DNA of 64,000 nucleotides from an uncultured bacterium (GCA_963705505.1 CAVPJU010000003.1:192001-256000); one strand, 5' to 3'; shown: positions 5,243 to 20,881, numbered from the stretch's first letter. Translations and numbers: made by a program. The notes: generated by a model from the sequence alone, not told the origin.

Positions 5243-5440
5243 ATTGTCCTCTCTTATGCCCATGCTCACACGAACAGCCCGGTCGTAAAAATATACCCCG
5301 ATTAAAACGGTTCTCAATGTTTTGATACCCGAATTATAGATATCCGCCTCAAAAGACCGTATCGGAGCGCGTAAGTCCATTGTTTTTAGGCGGCGTGTGT
5401 TGTAATATGAGTTTCTCTGATGGCGCAAGGAGGCTCTCAA

Positions 5441-6424
5441 ATGGCTACACTGGTTACAGGGGCTACGGGTTTCTTGGGCTCCCACATCGCAAGGAAGCTC
5501 GCCGAGAGGGGAGACAAGGTAAGGATACTCCTCAGAAAAACCAGCAACACTATAAATATAGACAACATAAACGCCGAGAGGGTTTACGGCGATGTAACCG
5601 ATATAGACTCCATCAGGAAAGCCCTCGAGGGCTGCGACACACTCTACCATACGGCGGGGGTCGTATCGTTCAAGCAGGCCGATTATAAAAAGATGGATGA
5701 TATAAACGTAAAAGGCACCAATAACGTATTTACGGCCGCGATGGAAGCCGGTGTGAAAAAAGCCGTATATACGAGCAGCGTGGCGGCGATCGGGCTTAAA
5801 CCGGGGAGGGAGCCGGCTGACGAAGAGACACCGTTTGACCCCGCAAGCACGGATATCCGGTACATAAAATCCAAATACTACGCCGAGCAGGAAGCTCTTA
5901 AATTTTTCGAGAAGGGCCTTCCGCTGGTGATCGTTAACCCGTCGATCGTGATAGGGGCGGGAGATGTTTACGTCTCGACCTCGGGGATAATTCTCTGGTA
6001 CTGCAAGAGGAGGCTCCCCGGCTACACGGACGGAGGCATAAACCTTGTGGACGCCGAGGACGTGGCCCGGGGACACCTGTTGGCGGCCGAGAAAGGGAGA
6101 CTGGGGGAGCGCTACATACTGAGCAACCGGAATATAACCATAAAAGAGCTGTTCGAAGTGCTCGAGAAGGTCACGGGGATTCCGAGGCCTAAAATGAAGA
6201 TACCCTACACTCTCGCTTACATAGGCGCGTTTATCGCTGAGCGCATATTCGGCATATCCGCGCCCAACTATGTGGCAATGGACATAGACTCAATAAAGGG
6301 GTCAAAGCACTACTGGTATTTCGATAATTCAAAGGCGGTCAGGGAACTCGGCTTCTCTCCGAGGCCGCTTGAAGAAACGATAGAAAGCACAGTAAAGTGG
6401 TTCAAGGAAAACGGCTACCTCTGA
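5441..6424 (+). CDS. NAD(P)-dependent epimerase/dehydratase, extended SDR (HpnA/dihydroflavonol-reductase-like)
   Basis: LVTGATGFLG, HTAG, YTSS, YxxSK catalytic motif; AAGGAGG SD before ATG 5441. Confidence 0.9.
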   Translation: MATLVTGATGFLGSHIARKLAERGDKVRILLRKTSNTINIDNINAERVYGDVTDIDSIRKALEGCDTLYHTAGVVSFKQADYKKMDDINVKGTNNVFTAAMEAGVKKAVYTSSVAAIGLKPGREPADEETPFDPASTDIRYIKSKYYAEQEALKFFEKGLPLVIVNPSIVIGAGDVYVSTSGIILWYCKRRLPGYTDGGINLVDAEDVARGHLLAAEKGRLGERYILSNRNITIKELFEVLEKVTGIPRPKMKIPYTLAYIGAFIAERIFGISAPNYVAMDIDSIKGSKHYWYFDNSKAVRELGFSPRPLEETIESTVKWFKENGYL

Positions 6425-6479: not shown

Positions 6480-7550
6480 ATGCCCGGAAACTCATTCGGA
6501 AATCTCTTTCGTATAACGACCTGGGGGGAATCCCACGGCCTGGCTCTCGGCGTCGTCATAGACGGGTGCCCCGCGGGGCTCGATATATCGCGTGACGATA
6601 TACAGTCGGAGCTCGACCGCAGGCGTCCCGGACAGAGCAAGATAACCACGCAGAGGAAAGAGTCGGACAGCGTCGAGATCCTATCGGGAATATTCGAGGG
6701 GAAGACTCTGGGGACTCCCATATCGCTCGTTGTCAGGAACGAGGACGTAATATCCAAATCGTACGAGGACATAAAAGACACGTACCGTCCGGGGCACGCC
6801 GATTACACCTACGACGCAAAATTCGGCATAAGGGATTACAGGGGCGGAGGCAGGTCCTCCGCAAGGGAAACCGTCGGAAGGGTGGCTGCGGGAGCGATCG
6901 CAAAGAAGATTCTGAATATGCAGGGCATTAAAACATACGGGTTTGTGAGACAGGTAGGGAAGATCGTCGCCCGGAAAATAGACCTCGACGAGATAGAGAA
7001 GAACATCGTAAGATGCCCCGACGCCGAGAAGGCGATTGAGATGATAGAGCTCATAGAAAAGGTGAGGCGTGAAGGAGATTCGGTAGGAGGCACGGTCGAA
7101 GTCGTATCGAAGGGTCTTCCGCCGGGACTCGGAAGCCCCGTATTCAATAAGCTCGACGCGGACCTCGCTTCGGCGCTCATGAGCCTGGGGGGCATCAGGG
7201 GGTTCGAGGTAGGCATGGGTTTCGAAGCGTCTAAAAGGAAAGGGTCTCAGGTCAATGACGTAATGTATAAGGACAAATCCGGAAAGCTCAGATACAAAAC
7301 CAATAACGCGGGCGGCCTCTTGGGCGGGATCACGAACGGCGAGGACCTCGTCGTGAGGATAGCCATCAAGCCGACGTCTTCGATCTCCAAGACTCAGCAC
7401 ACGGTCGATAAATACGGGAACCCGAAAGAGCTCAAGGTCAAGGGGAGGCACGATCCGTGTCTCTGCCCGAGAGCGGTGCCCATCGCCGAAGCGATGGTCA
7501 ACCTCGTTCTCGCGGACCACCTGCTAATGTCGAGAGTCGCGCGAATTTAA
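6480..7550 (+). CDS. aroC: Chorismate synthase
   Basis: GESHG, RRRPG, RPGHAD, RSSARET, GRHDPC. Confidence 0.97.
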   Translation: MPGNSFGNLFRITTWGESHGLALGVVIDGCPAGLDISRDDIQSELDRRRPGQSKITTQRKESDSVEILSGIFEGKTLGTPISLVVRNEDVISKSYEDIKDTYRPGHADYTYDAKFGIRDYRGGGRSSARETVGRVAAGAIAKKILNMQGIKTYGFVRQVGKIVARKIDLDEIEKNIVRCPDAEKAIEMIELIEKVRREGDSVGGTVEVVSKGLPPGLGSPVFNKLDADLASALMSLGGIRGFEVGMGFEASKRKGSQVNDVMYKDKSGKLRYKTNNAGGLLGGITNGEDLVVRIAIKPTSSISKTQHTVDKYGNPKELKVKGRHDPCLCPRAVPIAEAMVNLVLADHLLMSRVARI

Positions 7551-7901
7551 ACCCGCTCGCAACAGCCCGTCAGTTAAAATATATTCATATACAACTATCC
7601 AGTCCGCTCATCCGCGTGTAACACTTCTTAATAATCGTCGATATGCCCGGCCTGAAGTAAAGTCTTCTTTTTCCACGACTTGTAATATTCGGGTAAAATA
7701 TTTGCGGGGTTATTAACTGATTTAATTAGATATAATCAGCACCGGATAACTGGTTACGGCACGTACTTAATAAAGTACGATTGAGGTGAGCAGGATTATA
7801 TCTCATTATAGTTAATTATATTTTTCAATATTCTTCCCCCGGTTTTATATAACCTATTGAAACAAAAAACAAATTGCACTAAAATTGCAAAAAGGGGTAG
7901 T

Positions 7902-8000
7902 ATCCTTCCGAAATGGCAAACTATCCGAAAGGGTAGGACGCAAAGCCTCAAGCCTAAGGACTTGCCAAGTGCTGTCTATGGCGGTTGGGTTGCCGAAGAT
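7902..8000 (+). ncRNA. c-di-GMP-I (GEMM-I) riboswitch
   Basis: GGCAAA-CTATCC-GAAA-GGGTAG-GACGCAAAGCCTCAAGCCTAAG...TATGGCGGTTGGGTTGCCGAAG: P2 with GAAA tetraloop, GACGCAAAGC junction, CCTAAG/TATGG receptor in P3, P1 CTTC(C)G/CGAAG. Confidence 0.92.
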
Positions 8001-8114
8001 GAGTTACTTGCAATAATTCTAATATTCGAGGATAATTATAAATGAGCTGTAAACGATAACCTTAGCTATATTAAAGTATATTGCTAAAATTTGCTTTCAG
8101 GGAGGGGAACGATA

Positions 8115-10874
8115 ATGGGGATAATAATCAGGGAGAAGAAAGACCGGAGAGGACACGAAAGAATCCCCGTAAATTTTATCGTTTATTCCAGAAACACGGG
8201 AAAGGTGATGGGACAGGCAAGGGACCTTTCATCGAGAGGACTCTTTATACAAACGGAAGATGAATACGAACCGGGGACTAAACTCCTCCTCGAGTGCGAT
8301 CTCTCGGGCGCGCATCCGGTTAAAGCTTACTGCGAGGTCAGGAGATTCGAATCGAACGGAACCGGAGCGCACGGAATCGGGGTCGAATTCATAAACCTCT
8401 ACGAATCCGACAGGACCAAGCTGCTGAACTATATAGAGAGCAGTAAGAACAAACTCAATTCCGACGACTATTATTTATCCGATTTTAATGACATACCCGA
8501 CGATGACCTGTTTAAAAAGGCCGAGGTCTTCTGGCAATACAAACTGGACATGGAATCGAAGGGATACATAAGGTACAGAAGACCCCTTGCGTCGCCCTCC
8601 GCGCATAAAGTGATCATCGACGACGATTTCACGGGAAAGAAAAAAGAGATGATCATGATGGGGAGCAACAACTACCTTGGCCTCACTTCCCATCCGAAGG
8701 TAATCAAAATTGCAAAAGAAAAAATCGACAAATACGGCGCCGGAGCAGGGTCCGTCCCGCTCCTTGCCGGGACTTTCGACATACACAGACAGCTCGAGAT
8801 AAAACTCGCTGAGCTAAAAGGGTGTGAGGACGCGATCATATTCCCGAGCGGCTACGTAACTAATCTCGGATGCATACAGGCCCTCGTTAAGAACGAGGAC
8901 CTGGCCGTTATAGACAGGCTCGCCCACGCCAGCATCATCGACGGCTGTATGCTGTCCTCGGGGACGTTCAGGACGTTCAAGCATTCAGACGTCGACAGTC
9001 TCGAAAACGTGCTGAAGAGGAACCGTGACAACTTTAAAGGCAAGCTTGTAATCATAGACGGCGTCTATAGTATGGACGGGGACATAGCTCCCCTTCGTCA
9101 GATCACGGAGACCGCTCACAGGTACGGCGCCAAGATAATGGTCGATGAGGCTCACGCCACCGGTGTCATAGGGGATAAGGGAAGAGGAACGCCGAGCCAC
9201 TTCAAAATGAAGCCGGGCGAGGTAGATATAGTCATGGGGACACTGAGCAAATCCCTGGGCGGCATTGGCGGATTCATAGCCTCGACGAAAGAGGTCGTAA
9301 ACTATCTCAGGTACTATACGAGATCCTTCTTCTTTTCATCCAATTTCCCCCCTTCTGTCGCGGCCTCCGTGCTCGCCGCAATCGAGGTGATGGAGACGGA
9401 CAACTCGCTTCAGAAAAGCCTCTGGAGCAATATCAAATATATGAAGGAAAACCTGAAATCGATGGGATTTAAAACGGAACAGACAGAGTCCGCGATAATT
9501 CCCGTCATTATAGGGGACGAGCTCACTCAGAAAAAGATGAGCAGGAGATTCCACGAAGCCGGCATATATGTAAACGCGATCCCCCACCCCGCAGTGCCCA
9601 AAGGGCAGGAAAGGTTCAGGTTCAGCCTGATGGCTACTCACACGCGCGAGGACCTGGACAGGACGCTCGAAGTAGTCGAAAGCCTGGGAAGGGAATTCGG
9701 AATTATAGACAAGCCGGTTTCATTAAGCGTCCCCGAGGGTCAAAAATACACCGTGAAAGAGGTCTCCTCGAAGGAAGACATCGAAAATTCAGTCAGGTTC
9801 TCATGGAAAGTGTACAAGGACTATCCGGCATGGGTGCCCTATTTCCTGATAAAGGACCACGTAAAACTGATTTCGAACGATTACTTTTACTTCAGAAAGG
9901 TTTACGGAAAGAGGATCGTCGTCGAGGAGAACGGGGAGATAATCGGCACGGTAAGCGCATTCATAGATAATTATTACAACCGCTACCACGACACGAAAGT
10001 CGGATTCCTCGGGTTTTTCGAAGCCCTCCCGGACAAAGAAGAAGCAATAAGCCTTCTGCTGGATAGAGCCGAGGAATTTCTCGTAAGAGAGGGATGTACG
10101 GAACTGCAAGGGCCCGTGAACGGAATTTTCGGAATCTTCGGGGGCGGCCTGCTTTCGAGCAACTACGGCAAAATACCGTCATTCCTGCAGGTGTACACCC
10201 AGCCCTACTACCATGACTACTTCACGAATGCGGGATTCAGTCCGGTCAAAAAACTGCTCCATTACACCATAGACCTCAAATCACCCGACAACGTGAACGC
10301 GATAATGAAATACTCGCGGGAATCGTTGCCGCCGGATATAAAAATCAGGCAGATCAACAAATCCGATTGGGACAGAGAGGTACGGAGCGTCGTCAGAATT
10401 TTCAATGATTCCCTCGCTCATCTCTGGGGCAATGTTCCCTTCGATGCAGACGAATTCATAGAGTTCGCGGATGAGTTCAAGAGTCTGATCGTTCCCGACT
10501 ACTGGCTTATTGCAGAATCCGGCGGCGAAGCGATAGGCTTCATAGGGGGATTCCCGCAATACGCTTCCGTATTCAGGGGTTTAAACGGAGAGATCAAGCC
10601 ACACAAGCTGGTAACGCTGCCCCTCCAGTTGAGAGGCATCAAGGAAGGCGTTTTAATGATCATGGGTCTGCTGGACGAATATAAGGGAATGAGAATCGGC
10701 ACTATTCTCCTCAGCAAAGTCTGTGAGGCGATGATCGGGAACGGGTATGAAAAGGTGGCCGGCACATGGGTTCTGGAAGACAACTTAGGCTCGCGGCGTA
10801 TCGTGGAGAACCTGGGCGGAAAGGTCGACCTGCACTGGGAGATGTATTCAAAAATTCCGGCAATGAGTGAATAA
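8115..10874 (+). CDS. Fusion: PilZ + PLP alpha-oxoamine synthase (Spt/BioF/CqsA family) + YghO/bCerS-like GNAT region
   Basis: RGHER and DLSSRG PilZ motifs; GSNNYLGL, HASIIDG, DGVYSMDG, DEAH, GTLSKS (PLP Lys); C-terminal WKVYKDYPAWVP, GFLGFFE, GPVN, PYYHDY, WVLEDN; GGAGG SD before ATG 8115. Confidence 0.88.
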   Translation: MGIIIREKKDRRGHERIPVNFIVYSRNTGKVMGQARDLSSRGLFIQTEDEYEPGTKLLLECDLSGAHPVKAYCEVRRFESNGTGAHGIGVEFINLYESDRTKLLNYIESSKNKLNSDDYYLSDFNDIPDDDLFKKAEVFWQYKLDMESKGYIRYRRPLASPSAHKVIIDDDFTGKKKEMIMMGSNNYLGLTSHPKVIKIAKEKIDKYGAGAGSVPLLAGTFDIHRQLEIKLAELKGCEDAIIFPSGYVTNLGCIQALVKNEDLAVIDRLAHASIIDGCMLSSGTFRTFKHSDVDSLENVLKRNRDNFKGKLVIIDGVYSMDGDIAPLRQITETAHRYGAKIMVDEAHATGVIGDKGRGTPSHFKMKPGEVDIVMGTLSKSLGGIGGFIASTKEVVNYLRYYTRSFFFSSNFPPSVAASVLAAIEVMETDNSLQKSLWSNIKYMKENLKSMGFKTEQTESAIIPVIIGDELTQKKMSRRFHEAGIYVNAIPHPAVPKGQERFRFSLMATHTREDLDRTLEVVESLGREFGIIDKPVSLSVPEGQKYTVKEVSSKEDIENSVRFSWKVYKDYPAWVPYFLIKDHVKLISNDYFYFRKVYGKRIVVEENGEIIGTVSAFIDNYYNRYHDTKVGFLGFFEALPDKEEAISLLLDRAEEFLVREGCTELQGPVNGIFGIFGGGLLSSNYGKIPSFLQVYTQPYYHDYFTNAGFSPVKKLLHYTIDLKSPDNVNAIMKYSRESLPPDIKIRQINKSDWDREVRSVVRIFNDSLAHLWGNVPFDADEFIEFADEFKSLIVPDYWLIAESGGEAIGFIGGFPQYASVFRGLNGEIKPHKLVTLPLQLRGIKEGVLMIMGLLDEYKGMRIGTILLSKVCEAMIGNGYEKVAGTWVLEDNLGSRRIVENLGGKVDLHWEMYSKIPAMSE

Positions 10875-13452
10875 ACAAATGATTGACAGACAATTGTCCA
10901 TGTCGGAAGGGAACGGAACGAACATCCAGAAATCGATATTCAGTATTGTTGCGTTCGTTCTGCTCCTCTTCTGCATAGGGAATTTCCTATTAGGTCTCAA
11001 CAGGGTGAACAAACCCTACCCCGGATTTTTCTTCTATAAAAACCTCGTCATAACAGATATATCGCCGAAAACAGTCAACGGCGAGATGCTGAAAAGGTTT
11101 AAGGATAAATTAAAGGCAGTAAACGGTATACCTGTCAGAATCCCCGATGACGTATTTGAAATAATCGACAAAATCCCCGTGGGATCCCAAGTGGAATACA
11201 CGATACAGAGAAACAGTGATACATTCAGCGTTACCATCCCGATAGAGAAATTAGCACTAAAAGAGATGCTTCTCCTATTCGGAATCATATATGTGATAGG
11301 CATCGTGTTCCTTATCATCGGCGTGATGGTTCTTCAAAAGAAGCCTTACCTGAAGGCCAGTAAGGCGTTTTTCCTCTTCTGTGCTTCGATATGCGTATGG
11401 TTTGTCGGATCGTTCGACGCACAGGCTGTCTATTTATTCGACCAGCTGAGCTTCTTTTCCTGGATCTTCTGCCCGCTATTCGGAATATATCTGATGTTTA
11501 TTTTCCCGTCCGATACCAAACTGAAGGGAATGACGCACAATTTGGTGTCGATATTGTTTTTATTTATTTCAGCTATGCTTTTCGTTCTTCAGTTCATTTT
11601 CTTCTACAACTATGAAATATGGAAATACGTTAATACCGTAAGCTGGATTTACGTAGTCCTTAGCACCGTGATTTTCCCCATCTCTTCGCTCATGACCTAC
11701 ATGAATCCGTCGTCGGCGCTTGAAAAACAACGCGCGCAGATAATATTACTCGGCTGCATTTTCGGCTTGCTTGCCCCGGCTTCGGTGGTAGGCTGCATCA
11801 CGGTCTTTAAAATAAGCATGCCGTATAACCTGATGGCTCTCCCCGTGATAATTTTTCCCGTGTCCATCGCATACGCCATAGTAAAGCATAAGCTCTTCGA
11901 CATAGACGTAATCATAGAAAAGGCACTCACGTACGGACTCCTCACCGGAGCCGTGGGAGGCATCTTCGCACTCACGGTCCTGGGCTTCAACGTCGCCTTC
12001 GCCAAATACGGCGGATGGAAGAACCCGGCTTTCTTCGTTATCCTTAGCGGATTCCTAGTCATCGCCCTCAACCCCCTCAAGAACCGGATACAGGACCTAG
12101 TCGACCTGACATTTTTCAGAAAGAAGTACGATTACAGGGGGACGGTGGAGGAAGTGAGCTACGCCATGACGTCGCTCTTAAGCCTCGACAAGATAGTCGA
12201 TAAGATCATCGACATAGTCGAGAGCACCATGTTTTCAACTCCTGTCTCCGTATCCATATACAATCAGGACCTCGGAGCCTATGAGCAGTATTTGAAAGAA
12301 GGGGATATCCAAAGCCCGCCCGATATGACCGTCACTGAGGACAACATTCTGGTACAGCACCTTAATTATCACGGAAAGGAAATCTTCAGGGAAGACCTGA
12401 TTGCCGATGAGAGGTATATCCGCAACTCTCAGAAGCTTATGAGCGAGTTCGAGAGGTTCAATGCATCGCTTTTCATACCGCTCTTTTTCAAGAAGCAGCT
12501 GATAGGGTTCATCGCGCTCGGAGAAAAAAAGTCCGGGCTCTCCTACACGTCGCGCGACGTGATGCTGCTTAAGCTTCTTGCGAACCAGAGCGCGATAGCG
12601 ATCGAAAACGCCCTCGCATTCAAACTCGTCGAAGATTATGCGAAGAAGCTCGAAAAAACCAATAAGGAGCTCAAAGACGCGCAGACACAGCTCGTGCACG
12701 CGGAAAAGATGTCAGCGATCGGGCAGCTTGCCGCGGGCGTGGCCCACGAGATAAGGAACCCCTTAAACATAATCGAGGGGGCAAGGTACTACATATCCAC
12801 TTATATGATGGATAAAGAAAACACGGAGGTCGTCGGGGAATACCTCGATTATATAAAACACGAGGTGGACAGGACAAACAGGCTGATAGACAGCCTGCTC
12901 AAGTTCTCAAAAGCCGAACCGCCCTATTTCGAGAGTGTCAATATCAACAACGTACTCGAGAACGTCGTAATACTCGTACGGAAGCAGCTATCGGACAACA
13001 ATATAAATCTTGCTGTGAGGTTCGACGAAAACATCCCTCAGATCATGGCGGACCCGAACCAGCTCTGGCAGGTATTCATCAATATTATATTAAACGCCAT
13101 ACAGGCGATGCCAAAGGGCGGGGACATGACCATAGAGACTTCGACCAGGTGGGACGAATTCGCGAGCAGTGATAACCACCACATATACATACATTTCAAG
13201 GACACAGGCGTGGGAATAGACAAAAAAGATATCACGAAGATCTTCGATCCGTTTTTTACGAAAAAGGATATGGGAACCGGACTCGGACTCTCAATCGCCT
13301 ATAAGATTATAGAAAAACACCAAGGCAGAATAATAGTGGAGAGTGAGAAAGGGGCCGGGACAATATTTACGATTGAACTTCCATCAAATAACTATAATAT
13401 TACTGCGGGAGAGGAAGATGCCGAACACAAGGAAACGGGTGCTGGTTGTTGA
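10867..13452 (+). CDS. Membrane sensor histidine kinase (PDZ-like periplasmic domain, multi-TM bundle, GAF, HisKA-HATPase)
   Basis: DKLKAVNG..V...GSQVEYTIQR PDZ-like segment; many hydrophobic helices; PLFFKKQLIGFIALG..LANQSAIAIENA GAF; AHEIRNPL H-box; N/G1/F/G2 boxes; overlaps upstream stop; exact start uncertain. Confidence 0.9.
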   Translation: MNKQMIDRQLSMSEGNGTNIQKSIFSIVAFVLLLFCIGNFLLGLNRVNKPYPGFFFYKNLVITDISPKTVNGEMLKRFKDKLKAVNGIPVRIPDDVFEIIDKIPVGSQVEYTIQRNSDTFSVTIPIEKLALKEMLLLFGIIYVIGIVFLIIGVMVLQKKPYLKASKAFFLFCASICVWFVGSFDAQAVYLFDQLSFFSWIFCPLFGIYLMFIFPSDTKLKGMTHNLVSILFLFISAMLFVLQFIFFYNYEIWKYVNTVSWIYVVLSTVIFPISSLMTYMNPSSALEKQRAQIILLGCIFGLLAPASVVGCITVFKISMPYNLMALPVIIFPVSIAYAIVKHKLFDIDVIIEKALTYGLLTGAVGGIFALTVLGFNVAFAKYGGWKNPAFFVILSGFLVIALNPLKNRIQDLVDLTFFRKKYDYRGTVEEVSYAMTSLLSLDKIVDKIIDIVESTMFSTPVSVSIYNQDLGAYEQYLKEGDIQSPPDMTVTEDNILVQHLNYHGKEIFREDLIADERYIRNSQKLMSEFERFNASLFIPLFFKKQLIGFIALGEKKSGLSYTSRDVMLLKLLANQSAIAIENALAFKLVEDYAKKLEKTNKELKDAQTQLVHAEKMSAIGQLAAGVAHEIRNPLNIIEGARYYISTYMMDKENTEVVGEYLDYIKHEVDRTNRLIDSLLKFSKAEPPYFESVNINNVLENVVILVRKQLSDNNINLAVRFDENIPQIMADPNQLWQVFINIILNAIQAMPKGGDMTIETSTRWDEFASSDNHHIYIHFKDTGVGIDKKDITKIFDPFFTKKDMGTGLGLSIAYKIIEKHQGRIIVESEKGAGTIFTIELPSNNYNITAGEEDAEHKETGAGC

Positions 13453-15334
13453 CGACGAACAGCTCATACTCAAAATCATATCCGATATACTGACCAAGGA
13501 AGGATATGAGGTCATAGTCGCCAATAACTGCGAGAAGGCCGCAGAATACCTGAGGTCGTCTAATTTTAACGTGGTACTCTCGGATATAAAGATGCCCGTA
13601 AAAAGCGGCATAGACCTTCTTGAAGAAATCAAGAAGAAGGACCCAAATATCCCTGTCATCCTTATGACGGGTTTCGCCTCCCTCGAAACCGCCGTCGAGG
13701 CCGTCCAGAACGGAGCGTTCGATTATCTTATTAAACCGCTCGATTACGGCAAGCTCAAAAGCGTTATCGAACATGCCGCCGACAGGTACGAGCTCTACAG
13801 GGAGAACACGCGCCTGCTCAGCGATCTCAAAGAGCTGAACACCAACCTCGAGTTAAAGGTCAAAGAAAGGAACAGGCAGCTTGAGAACACCCTCAACAGC
13901 ACCATAGAAAGCATAATCACGACGGACAGGGACCTGACAATAGAGACTGCAAACCCGAAGTCTTCCGAAATATTCGGCAGGAACTGCGTAGGGGAGAAAC
14001 TGAGCCTTTTATTTCAAGGGATCAACTTCGATACAATAATTCCCAAAATCCTGAGTGATCCGTCGTATTCGACGAAACACGAAGTAAGGCACGACAATAA
14101 GTTCCTCGAAGTGACCCTTTCTCCTCTGATCGACTTCGAGACGAAAGAGATATTCGGAGTGATAGCCGCGACAGAAGATATAACGGAGAAGAAGAAACTC
14201 GAAGCTCAGCTCATACACTCCGCAAAGATGTCGGGCGTAGGCCAGCTGGCTGCGGGAGTCGCGCACGAATTCAACAACATTCTGTCGGGCATTATAGGCT
14301 ATACCAGCCTCGCGCTCACGAGACAGGACTTGGACAGCGCCAGGAAAGACCTGAAAGTCATCGAGAAGGCCTCGGACAGGGCGGTCGAAATAGTAAACAA
14401 GCTCCTTTCCTTCTCGAGGCAGAAAGGGGAGAAATTCCAGGTAGCGCAGATCGAGAGCGTCATAGACGACGCGCTCGGCCTGGTCGAACACACTTTCGAG
14501 ACCGAGGGCATAAGGATACTCAGGAGCTACGAGAAGGTCCCCGCTATAAGAATGAACCTGGGAGAGTTGCAGCAGGTTTTCCTCAATCTGGCGATAAATT
14601 CGAAACACGCCATGCCCCAGGGCGGCGCCATAGCCATCAGCACGAAGCTCGCCGGGAATTATGTAAGAATCGACTTCTCCGATACTGGAGTGGGCATCCC
14701 CCCTGAAAACCTGTCGAGGATATTCGAGCCGTTTTTTACGACAAAACTGAGCGAAGGCACAAAATCCGGCACGGGCCTCGGGCTATCGGTTATCTATGCG
14801 ATCATTGAAAGGCACGGCGGCCGCATCGATGTCTCAAGCGAGGTCAATAGAGGCACGACGTTCACGATCCTCCTCCCCAATATTCAGGCGGTTTCGAAGA
14901 CCCCGGAAGCGGAGCCGGCACAGAAAAGCCAGAACGGTAAAGTAATCGAGCTAAGGCGCAAAGGGAACGTCCTGATCGTCGACGACGAGGAATTCATCAG
15001 AGACATAGTGAGCGAATGCCTGTCGAGCACGGGGCACAATGTGATGACTGCAGGAAGCAGCGACCAGGCGATCGAGCTCATAAAAAAGAATCATTTCGAC
15101 ATCACGTTCCTTGATTTTTCCATGCCCAATAAAAGCGGCCTCGAGCTCCTCAGGGAAATAAAGGTCATAGACCCCAACTCCACAGTGGTCATTATCAGCT
15201 CAAGGCCCGAGGAGCAGCTCCCGGACGAGCTTTCGGACGAGGGTTCTTACAATATCATTAAGAAACCGTTCTCGGTGGACCAGATACAAAACGCGGTCTC
15301 CAGGGTTCTGGGGGCGGAGGCGATGAGCAGATAA
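13418..15334 (+). CDS. Hybrid kinase/response regulator REC-PAS-HisKA-HATPase-REC
   Basis: VLVVDDE..SDIKMP..KP; AHEFNNIL; DTGVG, GTGLGL; C-terminal LIVDDE..LDFSMP..KPF; ATG 13418 after GGAGAGG, overlaps upstream kinase. Confidence 0.92.
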   Translation: MPNTRKRVLVVDDEQLILKIISDILTKEGYEVIVANNCEKAAEYLRSSNFNVVLSDIKMPVKSGIDLLEEIKKKDPNIPVILMTGFASLETAVEAVQNGAFDYLIKPLDYGKLKSVIEHAADRYELYRENTRLLSDLKELNTNLELKVKERNRQLENTLNSTIESIITTDRDLTIETANPKSSEIFGRNCVGEKLSLLFQGINFDTIIPKILSDPSYSTKHEVRHDNKFLEVTLSPLIDFETKEIFGVIAATEDITEKKKLEAQLIHSAKMSGVGQLAAGVAHEFNNILSGIIGYTSLALTRQDLDSARKDLKVIEKASDRAVEIVNKLLSFSRQKGEKFQVAQIESVIDDALGLVEHTFETEGIRILRSYEKVPAIRMNLGELQQVFLNLAINSKHAMPQGGAIAISTKLAGNYVRIDFSDTGVGIPPENLSRIFEPFFTTKLSEGTKSGTGLGLSVIYAIIERHGGRIDVSSEVNRGTTFTILLPNIQAVSKTPEAEPAQKSQNGKVIELRRKGNVLIVDDEEFIRDIVSECLSSTGHNVMTAGSSDQAIELIKKNHFDITFLDFSMPNKSGLELLREIKVIDPNSTVVIISSRPEEQLPDELSDEGSYNIIKKPFSVDQIQNAVSRVLGAEAMSR

Positions 15335-15350
15335 ATTACCGCAGCCGGAC

Positions 15351-15713
15351 ATGGAAGAGTTTTCCCGTTTTTACTGTAAAATATTCGTGAATGAAAACGA
15401 GATATATTCCGGTGACCTCGGAGAGGTCCCCGAAAGGCTCAGGAAGGGAATGATCCGCGACTTAAGCGAATGGGCGGGCTCTCTCGGCAAGAGGGGCCTG
15501 AATGAACTAATTTATTCACACCTCGCCTGGTATGAGGAGAAAGGGACGTATTGCGAGACTTGCGGGGCATGGGCAAAGGACGATGACGGCGGGGAATGCG
15601 GGGAGTGCGGGCAAAAGTTCGGGGAGCGTTATATCCACGAGCGGAACAAGAGGCTCGATATGATTATTACATGCGTGGGAATGATTTCGAGCGTGCGAAT
15701 TTCGGAAATCTGA
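15351..15713 (+). CDS. Hypothetical protein with CxxC-x10-CxxC zinc ribbon
   Basis: CETC...CGEC; starts 16 nt after hybrid kinase stop. Confidence 0.65.
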   Translation: MEEFSRFYCKIFVNENEIYSGDLGEVPERLRKGMIRDLSEWAGSLGKRGLNELIYSHLAWYEEKGTYCETCGAWAKDDDGGECGECGQKFGERYIHERNKRLDMIITCVGMISSVRISEI

Positions 15714-15786
15714 ATAATAGAGACACCGGCTTCAGCCCGATAACGGCTGGGACGGAATGTCCGAATATCGAGGTAAGAGGTAAAAG

Positions 15787-16092
15787 ATGAAGCTGATTGT
15801 CAGAGGACAGATATTCCCGAAGGTATGGGAGATCGCAGAGGGCGTCAGGAAATTAAGAGAGGACAGAAAACCCGTTAACATAGGAGCGGGGACAGTCGGC
15901 TTCCCAGTCTATGAAGTCGAGCTTCCGGACGATACCAGAAAAGAGGGTTTATACTTTATTACTCCTCAGGGCATAAGACTCTATTTCTATCCCGGCGATC
16001 AGTATCAGATCGGATATCTGATCTCCGAGATCGACCGCGATCACTTGACCGAAAAACATTTTAAAGATACGGTCCATAACACGCCCTCCTGA
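15787..16092 (+). CDS. Hypothetical protein
   Basis: GAGGT SD, protein-like composition, fills the gap between genes. Confidence 0.6.
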   Translation: MKLIVRGQIFPKVWEIAEGVRKLREDRKPVNIGAGTVGFPVYEVELPDDTRKEGLYFITPQGIRLYFYPGDQYQIGYLISEIDRDHLTEKHFKDTVHNTPS

Positions 16093-16154
16093 GAATTCCG
16101 ACCCCGGCAAGCGGCTTTTGACTCCCAACCGGGGTGTATGTATTTTTATTTCAG

Positions 16155-17084
16155 ATGGAAAATCACGAACACGCTCACGAAATAAAAAACACGAAAGAAA
16201 AGAAAGCCCTGACGATAGTCCTGATACTCACCGCGTGCTTCATGATAGTGGAAGCGGTATCCGGATTCTACACCGGCAGTCTCGCCCTCCTCTCGGACGC
16301 GGCTCATATGCTGACGGACGTATTCGCGCTGTCCCTGGCTTATTTGGCTCTCTGGTTCTCCGTTAAACCGCCGACCCTCAGCAAAACCTTCGGGTTCTAC
16401 AGGGCGGAGATACTCGCCGCATTCATCAACGGAATCCTCCTCTTCGTAATCTCAGGAGGCATTATCGTAGAAGCGTACGAAAGGTTCAAGGTCCCTCAAG
16501 AGGTAAAAAGCCTCGAGATGACGGTTGTCGCAATCGTGGGGTTGATACTCAACATAGGCTCAGCCTATATACTGTCCGGGTATAAAAGCGGAAATCTAAA
16601 CATCAAGAGTGCGCTCTATCACGTCATAAGCGACGCCTTCGGCTCTGCGGGAGCCGTAGCCGCTGGCGTGGTGATGCTGATGACGGGCTGGTATTATGCG
16701 GACAGCATCATAAGCGTGCTCGTCTCGGTTCTTATATTGAGGAGCGCATGGGTTATTTTAAAGGAGTCGGTGCACATACTTCTCGAGGGTACACCGCGGG
16801 GAATAGACCTCAAAGCAGTTCAGAACACAATATGCGCCCACGAGGGAGTGCTTAGCGTGCACGACCTTCACGCATGGACGCTCACTCAGGGATTCGAAGC
16901 GCTGAGCGCTCACCTGGTCGTGGACGACATGCATAAAAGCGAAGCGCTAATAAGCGATATCAAAGACCAGCTGTCGGGGAAATTTCACATAACCCACGTA
17001 ACGCTTCAGCTGGAAACAAAAGAGTGCGGGTCCGCGAACAGCACCTGCTACGAAGACGCCTCGGAAGGAAAAGGAGCGGGATAG
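16155..17084 (+). CDS. czcD: Cation diffusion facilitator (CzcD/ZitB-like Zn/Co/Cd exporter)
   Basis: SLALLSDAAHMLTD, TFGFYRAEILAA, HVISD, HDLHAW, HVTLQLE. Confidence 0.9.
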   Translation: MENHEHAHEIKNTKEKKALTIVLILTACFMIVEAVSGFYTGSLALLSDAAHMLTDVFALSLAYLALWFSVKPPTLSKTFGFYRAEILAAFINGILLFVISGGIIVEAYERFKVPQEVKSLEMTVVAIVGLILNIGSAYILSGYKSGNLNIKSALYHVISDAFGSAGAVAAGVVMLMTGWYYADSIISVLVSVLILRSAWVILKESVHILLEGTPRGIDLKAVQNTICAHEGVLSVHDLHAWTLTQGFEALSAHLVVDDMHKSEALISDIKDQLSGKFHITHVTLQLETKECGSANSTCYEDASEGKGAG

Positions 17085-19770: not shown

Positions 19771-20881
19771 ATGTTCGGAGAAAATAAAGAGCAGATACAG
19801 GAGCTTAAGAAGAGACTGGTAGTACTCGGAGACTTTCTTTGACCTCCCCGGGAAAAAATCACGTCTTAAGGAACTCGAAGAGCTGACAGGCAAGCAGGGG
19901 TTCTGGGATAATGCCGACCGGGCGCAGGAAATCTTAAAGGAGCAGGCACGGATCAAAAGCGCTATCGACGGCTGGCAGAGGCTCTCCCGAGAGCTCGAGG
20001 ACGCGGAAGTCCTGGAGGAGCTGTCCCTCGAAGAAGAAAATGAGGAAGCCGCCCTGGAAGCCAGGGAAAAGCTGTCAGAAATACAGAACCAGGTCGAGAA
20101 CCTCGAATTCAAAAGGATTCTGGGGGAGCCCGATGACGAGAGAAACGCAATCGTATCGATAAACGCAGGCGCGGGCGGCACCGAGGCGCAGGACTGGGCG
20201 GAGATGCTCCTAAGGATGTATCTGAGGTACGCCGAGCTTAACGATTATACGACCGAGATGATCGAGTACTCGGAAGGGGACGAAGCCGGCATGAAGAGCG
20301 CAACGTTCCTCGTAAAAGGGGATTACGCGTTCGGCTATCTCAAGGGCGAGAGCGGAGTACACAGGCTGGTCAGGATTTCCCCGTTCGACGCCAATAAGAG
20401 AAGGCACACGTCGTTCGCATCCGTTTTCGTTTCTCCGGAAATCGACGAGAGCATAGAGGTCGATATTGAGGAAAAAGATTTGAGGGTGGATACCTACCGG
20501 GCGAGCGGGGCCGGCGGGCAGCACGTAAACAAGACCGATTCCGCGATAAGGATAACCCACTTCCCGACGGGGATAGTCGTAAGCTGTCAGAACGAACGCT
20601 CCCAGCATCAGAACCGGGCTACGGCGATGAAGGTACTGAAGGCAAGGCTCTACGAGCTCGAAAAGGAAAAACAGCAGGAAAAAATAGACGAGCTGCACTC
20701 GACGAAAAAGGAGATCGGATGGGGGAGCCAGATCCGTTCCTACGTGCTCCATCCGTACAGAATGATCAAGGACCACAGGACAGGGTACGAGACCGGAAAT
20801 GTCGAGCCCGTTTTGGACGGAGACCTGAGCGAATTCATAAAGAGCTATCTTCTTATGCACTCGGGTGAAAAAAAGGTATGA
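19771..20881 (+). CDS. prfB: Peptide chain release factor 2, programmed +1 frameshift at CTT-TGA-C (19837-19843)
   Basis: 23-codon leader MFGENKEQ...GDFL*; +1 frame DLPGKK..FWDN..GAGGTEAQDWAEM joins ORF 20204..20881 with SPF and GGQ motifs. Confidence 0.96.

Follow-up and report, generated by a model that had tools for sequence, protein, structure and literature searches.

What might a cyclic di-GMP (c-di-GMP) riboswitch control when it precedes a gene whose product is predicted to bind the same messenger, to form a lipid, and to act beside two histidine kinases? The question is raised by a three-gene unit in a 64-kb stretch of DNA from an uncultured bacterium (GCA_963705505.1, CAVPJU010000003.1:192001-256000), which is referred to here as the window. 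The genome from which the window is taken (label G000) measures 2.9 Mb and is 93.6% complete.

The unit starts with a c-di-GMP-I (GEMM-I) aptamer (7905..7997, + strand), followed by a gap of 117 nt and by three genes on the same strand. Gene 1 (8115..10874) encodes a 919-amino-acid (aa) fusion of a PilZ domain (residues 10-108), an α-oxoamine synthase (AOS) domain (~145-531) that belongs to the enzymes dependent on pyridoxal 5'-phosphate (PLP), and a tandem GNAT domain of the bacterial ceramide synthase (bCerS)/YghO family (538-919). Gene 2 (10867..13452) encodes an 861-aa sensor histidine kinase with a first transmembrane helix (TM1), a periplasmic PDZ-like domain, about nine more transmembrane helices, and GAF, HisKA, and HATPase domains. 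Gene 3 (13418..15334) encodes a 638-aa hybrid kinase with the order REC-PAS-HisKA-HATPase-REC. The best start of gene 1 is the ATG at 8115, which is preceded by the Shine-Dalgarno sequence GGGAGGGG; the mechanical open reading frame (ORF) begins at a TTG at 8091. Gene 2 starts with a GTG at 10867 and overlaps the end of gene 1 by 8 nt, and its first residues are kept as coding sequence in relatives. Gene 3 starts with an ATG at 13418 and overlaps the end of gene 2 by 35 nt. The initial annotation of this DNA had described a GEMM-I riboswitch ~115 nt before three genes overlapping at 10867/10874 and 13418/13452; the ORF coordinates and the position of the Rfam aptamer agree with that description.

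Our proposal, to which we assign a probability of about 0.45, is that the locus produces a c-di-GMP-licensed aminoketone or keto-ceramide signal that is sensed by a co-inherited kinase module, in the manner of CqsA and CqsS. A promoter just upstream would yield a transcript carrying the aptamer, which would act on translation initiation, with the 5' flank of the aptamer sequestering the Shine-Dalgarno sequence. The gene 1 protein would bind c-di-GMP again by its N-terminal PilZ domain. Its AOS domain would join a small amino acid (serine, glycine, or alanine) to an acyl thioester by condensation, giving a long-chain α-aminoketone, which the fused bCerS-family tandem GNAT would N-acylate directly, creating an oxidized (3-keto) ceramide-like lipid. 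Either this product or a derivative of it would be the ligand of the sensor module (TM1, PDZ, and a seven-helix bundle) of the translationally coupled kinase, which would signal by way of the hybrid kinase to further output.

Linkage and joint exchange of enzyme slot and sensor

The relatives searched comprise 120 genomes of the phylum, from 32 genera, and 25 related PilZ-AOS loci were fetched for a reading of their neighborhoods. Source names on close homologs suggest that the phylum is probably Candidatus Dadabacteria. The related genomes are non-independent samples, and all three cases of cassette exchange described below lie within this one phylum. A motif-based, genome-wide scan for loci was dominated by generic AOS motifs, and one of its 80 loci carried the tri-domain fusion.

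Gene 2 has Pfam matches to GAF (43.5 bits), HisKA (49.6), and HATPase (89.6) that follow ~400 hydrophobic residues. Gene 3 matches REC in two stretches (187.7 bits), HisKA (51.2), and HATPase (92.5), and has a PAS domain between REC and HisKA. The H-boxes read AHEIRNPL in gene 2 and AHEFNNIL in gene 3. Several homologs of gene 2 have a periplasmic domain that is recognized as PDZ; in the window protein, the match is weak.

According to the initial annotation, the enzyme and the kinases may form one system, an idea that would have suffered had homologs of the fusion not been linked to such kinases elsewhere. A gene 2 homolog directly follows PilZ-AOS in 25 of 25 related loci, and a gene 3 homolog comes next in 23; the other two loci are cut by contig ends. 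PilZ-AOS, in its fused or two-domain form, is present in 37 of the 120 genomes and the sensor region in 42, all 37 genomes have the sensor, and both elements occur in the same 17 of the 32 genera. Because the genomes are non-independent, and because aroC, orf120, orf101, and a gene for a CDF transporter are also syntenic, adjacency alone is weak evidence. This general conservation of gene order is also a point in favor of an ordinary metabolic role, in which a Kbl- or BioF-type AOS (for threonine degradation or biotin synthesis) is fused to an acetyltransferase and the kinases are unrelated neighbors. The replacement of slot and sensor together speaks against such a role.

Two relatives have interrupted copies of the locus. 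In G009 (L112 and L001), several in-frame stops or frame changes are found in genes 1 and 2, and gene 3 is intact. In G023 (L110), the matches to gene 2 and aroC are split. These breaks could reflect either faulty assembly or a decaying locus, and they are not taken as indicating pseudogenes.

Judged from sequence comparisons within the phylum, the enzyme slot and the sensor module are swapped together in three genera. The same mosaic is found in three same-genus pairs: the flanks, kinase core, and gene 3 are ~90% identical, compared with 12-60% for the slot and sensor. In genus g1, the window and G006 share 93% identity in aroC, 94% in gene 3, 94% in the kinase core, and 81% in GAF, versus 51% in PilZ, 53% in AOS, 42% in GNAT, 31% in sensor residues 1-200, and 59% in residues 200-400. 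In g18, G046 and G054 are 95% identical in gene 3, 91% in the kinase core, and 75% in GAF, with 29% in PilZ, 51% in AOS, and 40-53% in the sensor. In g19, the values for G048 and G052 are 93% for aroC, 87% for gene 3, 85-97% for the kinase from residue 340, and 12-57% for kinase residues 1-320. The g19 slot even differs in kind, with AOS, an uncharacterized 554-aa protein, and a separate bCerS in G052, and a methyltransferase-domain protein in G048. At the DNA level, the g1 pair is ~0.85 identical, then 0.51-0.63 between ~8100 and 12000, and then 0.82-0.97; the leader, including the aptamer, stays conserved between the window and G006. As a separate observation, G046 (L123, ~400-2500) carries ~2 kb between aroC and PilZ-AOS that are absent there in G054.

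Trees agree with this picture. For the AOS domain, a monophyletic g1 is rejected by the approximately unbiased (AU) test (log-likelihood difference 207.8, p 2.7e-6, with g1 set by genus labels after the identity tables had been inspected), and the gene 3 tree keeps g1 together with a Shimodaira-Hasegawa-like approximate likelihood ratio test (SH-aLRT) value of 99.8. The AOS domain of G006 is nearer to that of G011, from another genus (69%), than to that of its own genus (53%).

The variable sensor module of gene 2 (10867..11886, + strand) corresponds to residues 1 to ~340 and comprises TM1, the PDZ-like domain, and the seven-helix bundle. The protein breakpoint lies at kinase residue ~320-340 in all three pairs; between the window and G006, kinase identity is 0.17-0.50 up to residue ~315 and 0.88-0.97 from ~320. 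In the kinase model (predicted local distance difference test, pLDDT, of 71), a low-pLDDT hinge is placed at 341-347, with TM1, a beta-rich periplasmic domain, and seven helices predicted before it, and two more helices, GAF, and the kinase after it. The hinge coincides with an invariant K340/L343-F344-D345-I346 motif, which reads KHKLFDIDVII in the window. The sensor model gave no Foldseek match to PDB at E <= 0.001; the top rows were generic seven-helix receptors at template modeling (TM) scores of ~0.3 and the PDZ domain of DegS at E 0.016. The fastest-evolving segment is the N-terminal 200 residues of the kinase, including the periplasmic PDZ-like domain.

The slot varies in other relatives as well. 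Genes between PilZ-AOS and the kinase encode an S-adenosylmethionine (SAM) methyltransferase in G054, a 3-beta-HSD/epimerase and an uncharacterized protein in G036, and uncharacterized small proteins in G035. None of five genomes with PilZ-AOS and both kinases has a bCerS-family match at E <= 1e-5, using a profile that retrieves the G000 domain at 1.8e-121. PilZ-AOS and the kinases are therefore kept together where bCerS is missing, and the GNAT domain is dispensable for the association of enzyme and kinase. The varying contents of the slot thus point to a core that consists of a c-di-GMP input, a variable slot that is usually filled by an AOS, a variable sensor, and a constant transmitter and hybrid kinase.

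The linkage and cassette data would serve equally for a homeostatic feedback, in which the kinase senses the cell's own product or precursor and the phosphorelay tunes synthesis or c-di-GMP, with no communication between cells. With the enzyme and the kinase transmitter both located in the cytoplasm, the inner membrane of the producing cell is where the lipid would be expected to arrive first; the sensor is modeled as a membrane-embedded helix bundle. Sequence alone cannot separate this arrangement from a signaling one. However, deeply divergent cassettes within a genus are typical of strain-discriminating systems and are unexpected for homeostasis, and we consider feedback of this kind quite unlikely. 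The agr and ComQXP systems discriminate between strains and have divergent types. A more specific form of our proposal is strain-specific lipid quorum sensing that is on only at high c-di-GMP, with the synthase, tailoring, and sensor cassettes as "pherotypes" that share a constant transmitter and hybrid kinase; in this specific form, the proposal is unlikely.

Domains of the fusion enzyme

The assignment that is most informative about the possible product is that of the C-terminal tandem GNAT (9726..10871, + strand). Pfam recognizes GNAT (Acetyltransf_1) at gene 1 residues 781-901 with 49.8 bits. An AlphaFold2 model of the C-terminal 382 residues (pLDDT 94.8, predicted TM score 0.91) has the fold of a tandem GNAT. 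The best Foldseek matches are to tandem GNATs (5kf1, 7q3a, 2wpw, and MshD; E 6e-18 to 4e-13, TM score ~0.6), the solved folds being a glucosamine N-acetyltransferase, MAB_4324, a clavulanate tandem GNAT, and MshD. The motif Y-x-G-R/M-G/R-I-G, which we take to be the acyl-CoA-binding motif, is kept in the C-terminal repeat. A PDB sequence search with the domain gave no match below E 0.3, and NCBIfam models matched neither the domain nor its separate relatives. Existing names are equally general: in the ESM Atlas only generic GNAT clusters were found, and 10 separate relatives are named only "GNAT family N-acetyltransferase."

Relatives of the domain form a family of separate ~370-aa proteins, with 3708 representatives at E <= 0.001 and 201 at E <= 1e-30. 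The domain is 25% identical to E. coli YghO over 96% coverage (E 2e-29), and it matches the N-acetyltransferase of the Sphingomonas parapaucimobilis spt-acp-lptFG cluster with a BLASTP E of 4e-43 and an hhalign probability of 100 (E 2.3e-81). These homologies place it in the bacterial ceramide-synthase family. The Figure 9 legend of PMC9386255 lists yghO (ECD_02850) with CC_1154, an acyl-CoA N-acyltransferase needed for dihydroceramide, and passages by other authors call the CC_1154-type enzyme bCerS or CerS (PMC11087976, PMC11324152). The domain is thus assigned by sequence to the YghO/CC_1154 (bCerS) family, with the equivalence of yghO and CC_1154 taken from that legend. We hold the family assignments across the locus with high confidence. 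A profile search indicates that this domain is the only strong bCerS-family member in G000.

The E. coli yghO neighborhood (L135, 4519-10116) includes genes for an AOS, an acyl carrier protein (ACP), an epimerase/dehydratase, a fatty acyl-AMP ligase, and LptF/LptG. The Sphingomonas cluster (L136, 437-10161) encodes an NAD(P)H-binding protein, ACP, serine palmitoyltransferase (Spt; 833 bits against a cut-off of 670), and LptF/LptG. The two clusters have a common gene set; in the Prokaryotic Genome Annotation Pipeline (PGAP), the Spt of both is named "aminotransferase class I/II-fold" and the bCerS homologs are "N-acetyltransferase" or "YghO." In other phyla (Elusimicrobiota, Methylomirabilota, Bacteroidota, and others), relatives of the domain are separate genes directly 3' of an AOS gene. 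The best NCBIfam match of the adjoining AOS is Spt in six of seven tested, at 510-537 bits, which is under the cut-off of 640. Neighbors of these separate relatives include PAP2_3 enzymes, extended short-chain dehydrogenases/reductases (SDRs), a fatty-acid hydroxylase, and a sulfotransferase.

The AOS domain (8547..9707, + strand) matches Aminotran_1_2 (PF00155) with 195.5 bits at residues 178-520 and matches AOS, Spt, and Kbl structures in PDB at E 1e-74 to 3e-87. S378 and K379 are invariant in 25 sequences, and the position of K379 suggests that it is the PLP lysine. Its NCBIfam scores are 418 bits for TIGR01825 (cut-off 535), 402.5 for Kbl (NF005394; 460), and 396.8 for BioF (TIGR00858; 426.45). 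The three Spt models give 385.2 for CFB (NF047600; 640), 344.6 for beta (NF047599; 500), and 298.8 for alpha (NF047603; 670), and the CqsA-type model (NF005526) gives 201.9 (428). Thus, the domain reaches no curated equivalog cut-off for Spt, Kbl, BioF, or CqsA, and it is neither a demonstrated Spt nor a member of CqsA/LqsA, the enzymes that the initial annotation had cited. As controls, the Spt models score E. coli Spt at 558.9 (cut-off 500) and Sphingomonas Spt at 833.4 (670). We describe the domain as Spt-like and not as an Spt equivalog.

In a quick maximum-likelihood IQ-TREE analysis of 101 sequences, from which the Sphingomonas Spt row was left out, all 25 PilZ-linked AOS domains group together as a clade with support 97. 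A branch with support 99 has this clade, E. coli Spt, and all 13 AOS proteins adjoining a bCerS homolog on one side, and E. coli Kbl, E. coli BioF, and the genome's own AOS paralog on the other. That paralog is a separate 398-aa protein encoded on contig C6 of G000. The PilZ-AOS clade lies outside the verified Spt group, and its nearest neighbors are uncharacterized AOS proteins of Bacillota and Bacteroidota.

These data return us to the ordinary metabolic role. The Kbl and BioF scores are as high as those of the Spt models, which would suit threonine degradation or biotin synthesis. However, both are under their cut-offs, and the branch with support 99 parts PilZ-AOS from the enzymes of those pathways. 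Moreover, the fused domain is in the ceramide-synthase family, and a housekeeping enzyme would leave the riboswitch and PilZ unexplained. We regard this role as very improbable.

The initial annotation had also predicted an N-acylated aminoketone or ceramide-like lipid as product. Such a product would fit the bCerS-family domain and the relatives that adjoin Spt-like AOS genes. Since gene fusions argue for consecutive steps, condensation and N-acylation would follow one another here. In the "acylation before reduction" model of bacterial ceramide synthesis, as passages of PMC11087976 present it, N-acylation precedes reduction. The fusion joins the condensing and N-acylating steps, in the order of that model.

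Other AOS fusions were seen in metagenomic data. P0072 is a PilZ-AOS-FemAB_like protein of 933 aa in which a FemAB-like domain replaces GNAT, and AOS fused to REC occurs among P0085, P0093, and P0096, the metagenome-assembled genomes being labeled Candidatus Eremiobacterota and Armatimonadetes. AOS enzymes seem to have been put repeatedly under second-messenger or phosphorylation control.

c-di-GMP inputs and envelope functions

The Rfam covariance model for c-di-GMP-I, which had been named as a check on the riboswitch, matches the leader well above its gathering score. Rfam cmscan gives RF01051 at 78.8 bits (gathering score 35, E 8.1e-14), with positions 1-87 of the 87 in the model covered, and no other Rfam family is above its gathering score within the window. 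Of 18 fetched fusion loci, 16 have a homologous aptamer before gene 1, and the remaining two are truncated there by contig ends. In a fold based on an alignment of nine sequences from close kin, compensatory changes are found in six predicted pairs, all within the helices of the aptamer. The unpaired G that precedes the first helix agrees with the consensus G, which presumably marks selectivity for c-di-GMP over 3'3'-cGAMP variants.

A candidate sigma-70-type promoter (7857..7885, + strand; TTGAAA, 17 nt, TAAAAT) precedes the aptamer. It is the best consensus match in 7500-16200, with 10 of 12 positions, and 11 aligned leaders all keep T, A, A, and T of its second hexamer. The region between aptamer and gene 1 (7998..8114, + strand) is the presumptive expression platform and holds a conserved block, a promoter-like site, and the Shine-Dalgarno sequence. 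This last element, at 8100-8107, can pair with the 5' flank of the aptamer (UCCUUCC, 7903-7909). The pairing is found in both the alignment fold and the single-sequence minimum free energy structure, for which z is -1.39 and not significant, and shows only one-sided changes. Alternatively, the flank can pair with GAAG (7995-7998) and close the aptamer.

No terminator-like hairpin was found on the + strand between 7998 and 8114, and a transcription terminator was rejected on that ground as the expression platform. Control is therefore probably exerted on translation initiation. Because the flank would be paired either with the Shine-Dalgarno sequence or with the GAAG that closes the aptamer, c-di-GMP would be an ON signal for translation at this leader, for which the sequence support is thin.

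The second predicted input is at the protein level. The PilZ domain (8142..8438, + strand) matches PF07238 with 53.5 bits, against a cut-off of 22.5. PilZ proteins bind c-di-GMP by RxxxR and D/NxSxxG motifs. Both are intact in gene 1, as R12 and R16 and as D37-L-S39-S-R-G42, and support the earlier claim that the protein has c-di-GMP-binding motifs of its own. R12, R16, S39, and G42 are invariant among 25 aligned fusions with identities down to 45%.

Among 27 loci, each with an available upstream region retains a c-di-GMP input in the form of a riboswitch, PilZ, or both. Both are present in 16 fusion loci, although the aptamer of L115 (G056) is weak at 40 bits, and the upstream region is cut by a contig end in two more (L111 and L114). 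The loci of G052 and G048 have only the riboswitch, and six loci (L121-L125 and L142) have only PilZ. In G059 (L120), PilZ is present and the aptamer has moved to between PilZ-AOS and the kinase (5874-5960, minus strand, 59 bits).

G000 has 10 c-di-GMP-I aptamers in total, a large regulon for a small genome. The other nine are on contigs C1, C3, C6, C7, C8, and C10 (L126-L134). They precede genes for a CBM96 protein, an SLT-SPOR transglycosylase, an uncharacterized protein with a Wza-like exporter, PilM/PilN, a 1421-aa TPR protein, a glucose/sorbosone dehydrogenase, and several proteins assigned to no family. Where recognizable, their targets have envelope and surface functions.

This regulon bears on the main rival to a signal, namely that the locus makes a structural envelope lipid, a ceramide-type component of the outer membrane, as part of a c-di-GMP-controlled switch to a sessile, matrix-producing state. 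The kinases would then monitor the envelope or other cues, and the fast sensor half, exposed to phage or predators, would drag the adjoining gene along. In addition to the envelope genes behind the other nine aptamers, the fast evolution of the kinase N-terminal 200 residues with their PDZ-like domain is in keeping with this idea, as are the Spt-like/bCerS pairs of other phyla that are found without these kinases. The Spt-bCerS pathway makes membrane ceramides in Caulobacter, Sphingomonas, and E. coli B, according to passages of PMC9386255, PMC11087976, and PMC11324152. However, the pairing that is conserved is that of AOS and kinase and not that of AOS and bCerS, as the five genomes without a bCerS match indicate. 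Tailoring enzymes that vary within the slot are unusual for a bulk membrane lipid. Furthermore, the cytoplasmic enzyme, including PilZ and AOS, is replaced with the sensor, so the replacement extends beyond the exposed part. Unlike in the yghO and Sphingomonas clusters, no gene for a PAP2 or other head-group transferase, dedicated ACP, acyl-ACP synthetase, or second LptFG is seen beside the operon. We therefore regard a structural lipid as somewhat unlikely.

Among the neighboring genes, an extended-SDR gene of the epimerase/3-beta-HSD family (5420..6424, + strand), two genes upstream, is a weak candidate for a keto-reductase. Its product has a BLASTP E of 3e-35 to an SDR adjoining an Spt-like/bCerS pair (L015) and of 4e-17 to the yghO-cluster epimerase, and a related SDR lies between PilZ-AOS and the kinase in G036. 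Because the SDR family is common, this is weak evidence for a reductase role. A hopanoid role was also considered for this gene and rejected: the protein scores 346 bits with the HpnA model (cut-off 367.65), and no squalene-hopene cyclase was found in the 93.6% complete genome.

Downstream of gene 3, orf120 (15351-15713) and orf101 (15787-16092), both on the + strand, encode proteins of 120 aa, with a CxxC...CxxC zinc-ribbon-like motif, and of 101 aa. Neither matches a Pfam family. In most related loci the two ORFs likewise come after gene 3, including loci with another kind of enzyme slot, and they are possible outputs or partners in the phosphorelay. Elsewhere in the window, a release-factor ORF with an RF-1 domain (20204-20881) starts in the middle of PCRF (profile positions 121-194), the pattern expected of the programmed +1 frameshift of prfB.

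Known systems and biological meaning

Several observations count against a c-di-GMP-licensed signal. At 12 loci of other phyla with separate Spt-like and bCerS genes, no such kinases were found, which argues that the lipid pathway alone is not a signaling pathway. The genes near the unit include none for a response regulator that carries an output domain. The G048 slot holds no AOS, which means that dependence of the kinase on an AOS product cannot extend to all lineages. The AOS domain fits no curated equivalog, which leaves the amino-acid substrate of the enzyme unassigned, and the sensor model is of moderate confidence and resembles no solved structure significantly. Genes that are physically linked need not be functionally coupled: the joint replacement could come about simply because slot and sensor sit between two conserved arms for recombination, namely the leader and the kinase core, and selection would then bear on no more of the sensor than its exposed periplasmic part. 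Finally, a promoter-like site inside the leader (TTGCAA-17-GATAAT, 8008-8036), in a block conserved across genera of the family, could, if active, yield aptamer-free transcripts that bypass the riboswitch.

The closest precedents for the proposed signal are the CqsA/CqsS system of Vibrio and the LqsA/LqsS system of Legionella, in which an autoinducer synthase of the AOS family is encoded beside a membrane sensor kinase. The locus resembles them in its PLP-dependent AOS-family enzyme beside a kinase with multiple transmembrane helices, in the hydrophobic aminoketone-derived product that would be expected, and in having this enzyme-kinase pairing as its core. It differs in sequence, because the PDB entry for CqsA ("CAI-1 autoinducer synthase") is matched only at E 5e-34, versus 1e-74 to 1e-87 for Spt and Kbl. 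It also differs in that the enzyme has PilZ and, in this lineage, a fused N-acyltransferase, all behind a c-di-GMP riboswitch, and in that the kinase combines PDZ, a seven-helix sensor, and GAF, with a hybrid kinase encoded after it. To our knowledge, cassette polymorphism has not been described for Cqs or Lqs.

Polymorphic signal-receptor loci are known from ComQXP of Bacillus and staphylococcal agr, which use ribosomal peptides. As in those loci, a biosynthetic gene and a kinase sensor are hypervariable and co-inherited here, and the transmitter and its downstream partner are conserved. By analogy, the presumed signal would take the place of the peptide but would be an AOS-made lipid. PilZ-fused enzymes are also known, for example the cellulose synthase BcsA, in which PilZ is an allosteric input. 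The locus shares with such fusions, and with GEMM-I regulons, a typical aptamer, PilZ on an enzyme, and other aptamers in the genome before pilus, polysaccharide-export, and cell-wall genes. In contrast to them, it has predicted c-di-GMP inputs at the RNA and protein levels on one gene, and the predicted target is a PLP-dependent lipid-forming enzyme.

To the extent that the Spt-bCerS-CerR pathway of Caulobacter, Sphingomonas, and E. coli B is set out in the passages cited above, the locus is like it in combining an AOS with a YghO-family tandem GNAT and in having an extended SDR nearby. Unlike in that pathway, the enzymes are fused to each other and to PilZ, the AOS stays below every Spt equivalog cut-off, and no dedicated ACP, acyl-ACP synthetase, LptFG copy, or head-group enzyme adjoins them. 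The linkage to two kinases and a riboswitch is a further difference, as the described clusters lack these features.

Three results go beyond the initial annotation: the YghO/bCerS assignment, the slot-sensor cassette, and a core that is independent of bCerS. In the full-text literature searched, the scope of which excluded most subscription journals, we found no prior description of PilZ-AOS or of a c-di-GMP riboswitch associated with sphingolipids.

The order of acylation and reduction in bacterial ceramide synthesis is still disputed in passages of PMC11087976 and PMC11324152. A fusion of an Spt-like enzyme with bCerS would provide independent support for acylation directly after condensation. 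If our proposal is correct, a lipid-forming PLP enzyme joins the direct targets of c-di-GMP, and the locus offers a clear natural case in which one messenger acts on a single gene twice, as RNA and as protein. In the strain-specific form judged unlikely above, it would be the first known counterpart of agr and ComQXP polymorphic signaling to use a lipid, and the first case in which c-di-GMP is connected directly to sphingolipid-like chemistry. The block exchange at a fixed hinge in three genera predicts that signals and receptors of these bacteria have cognate specificity.

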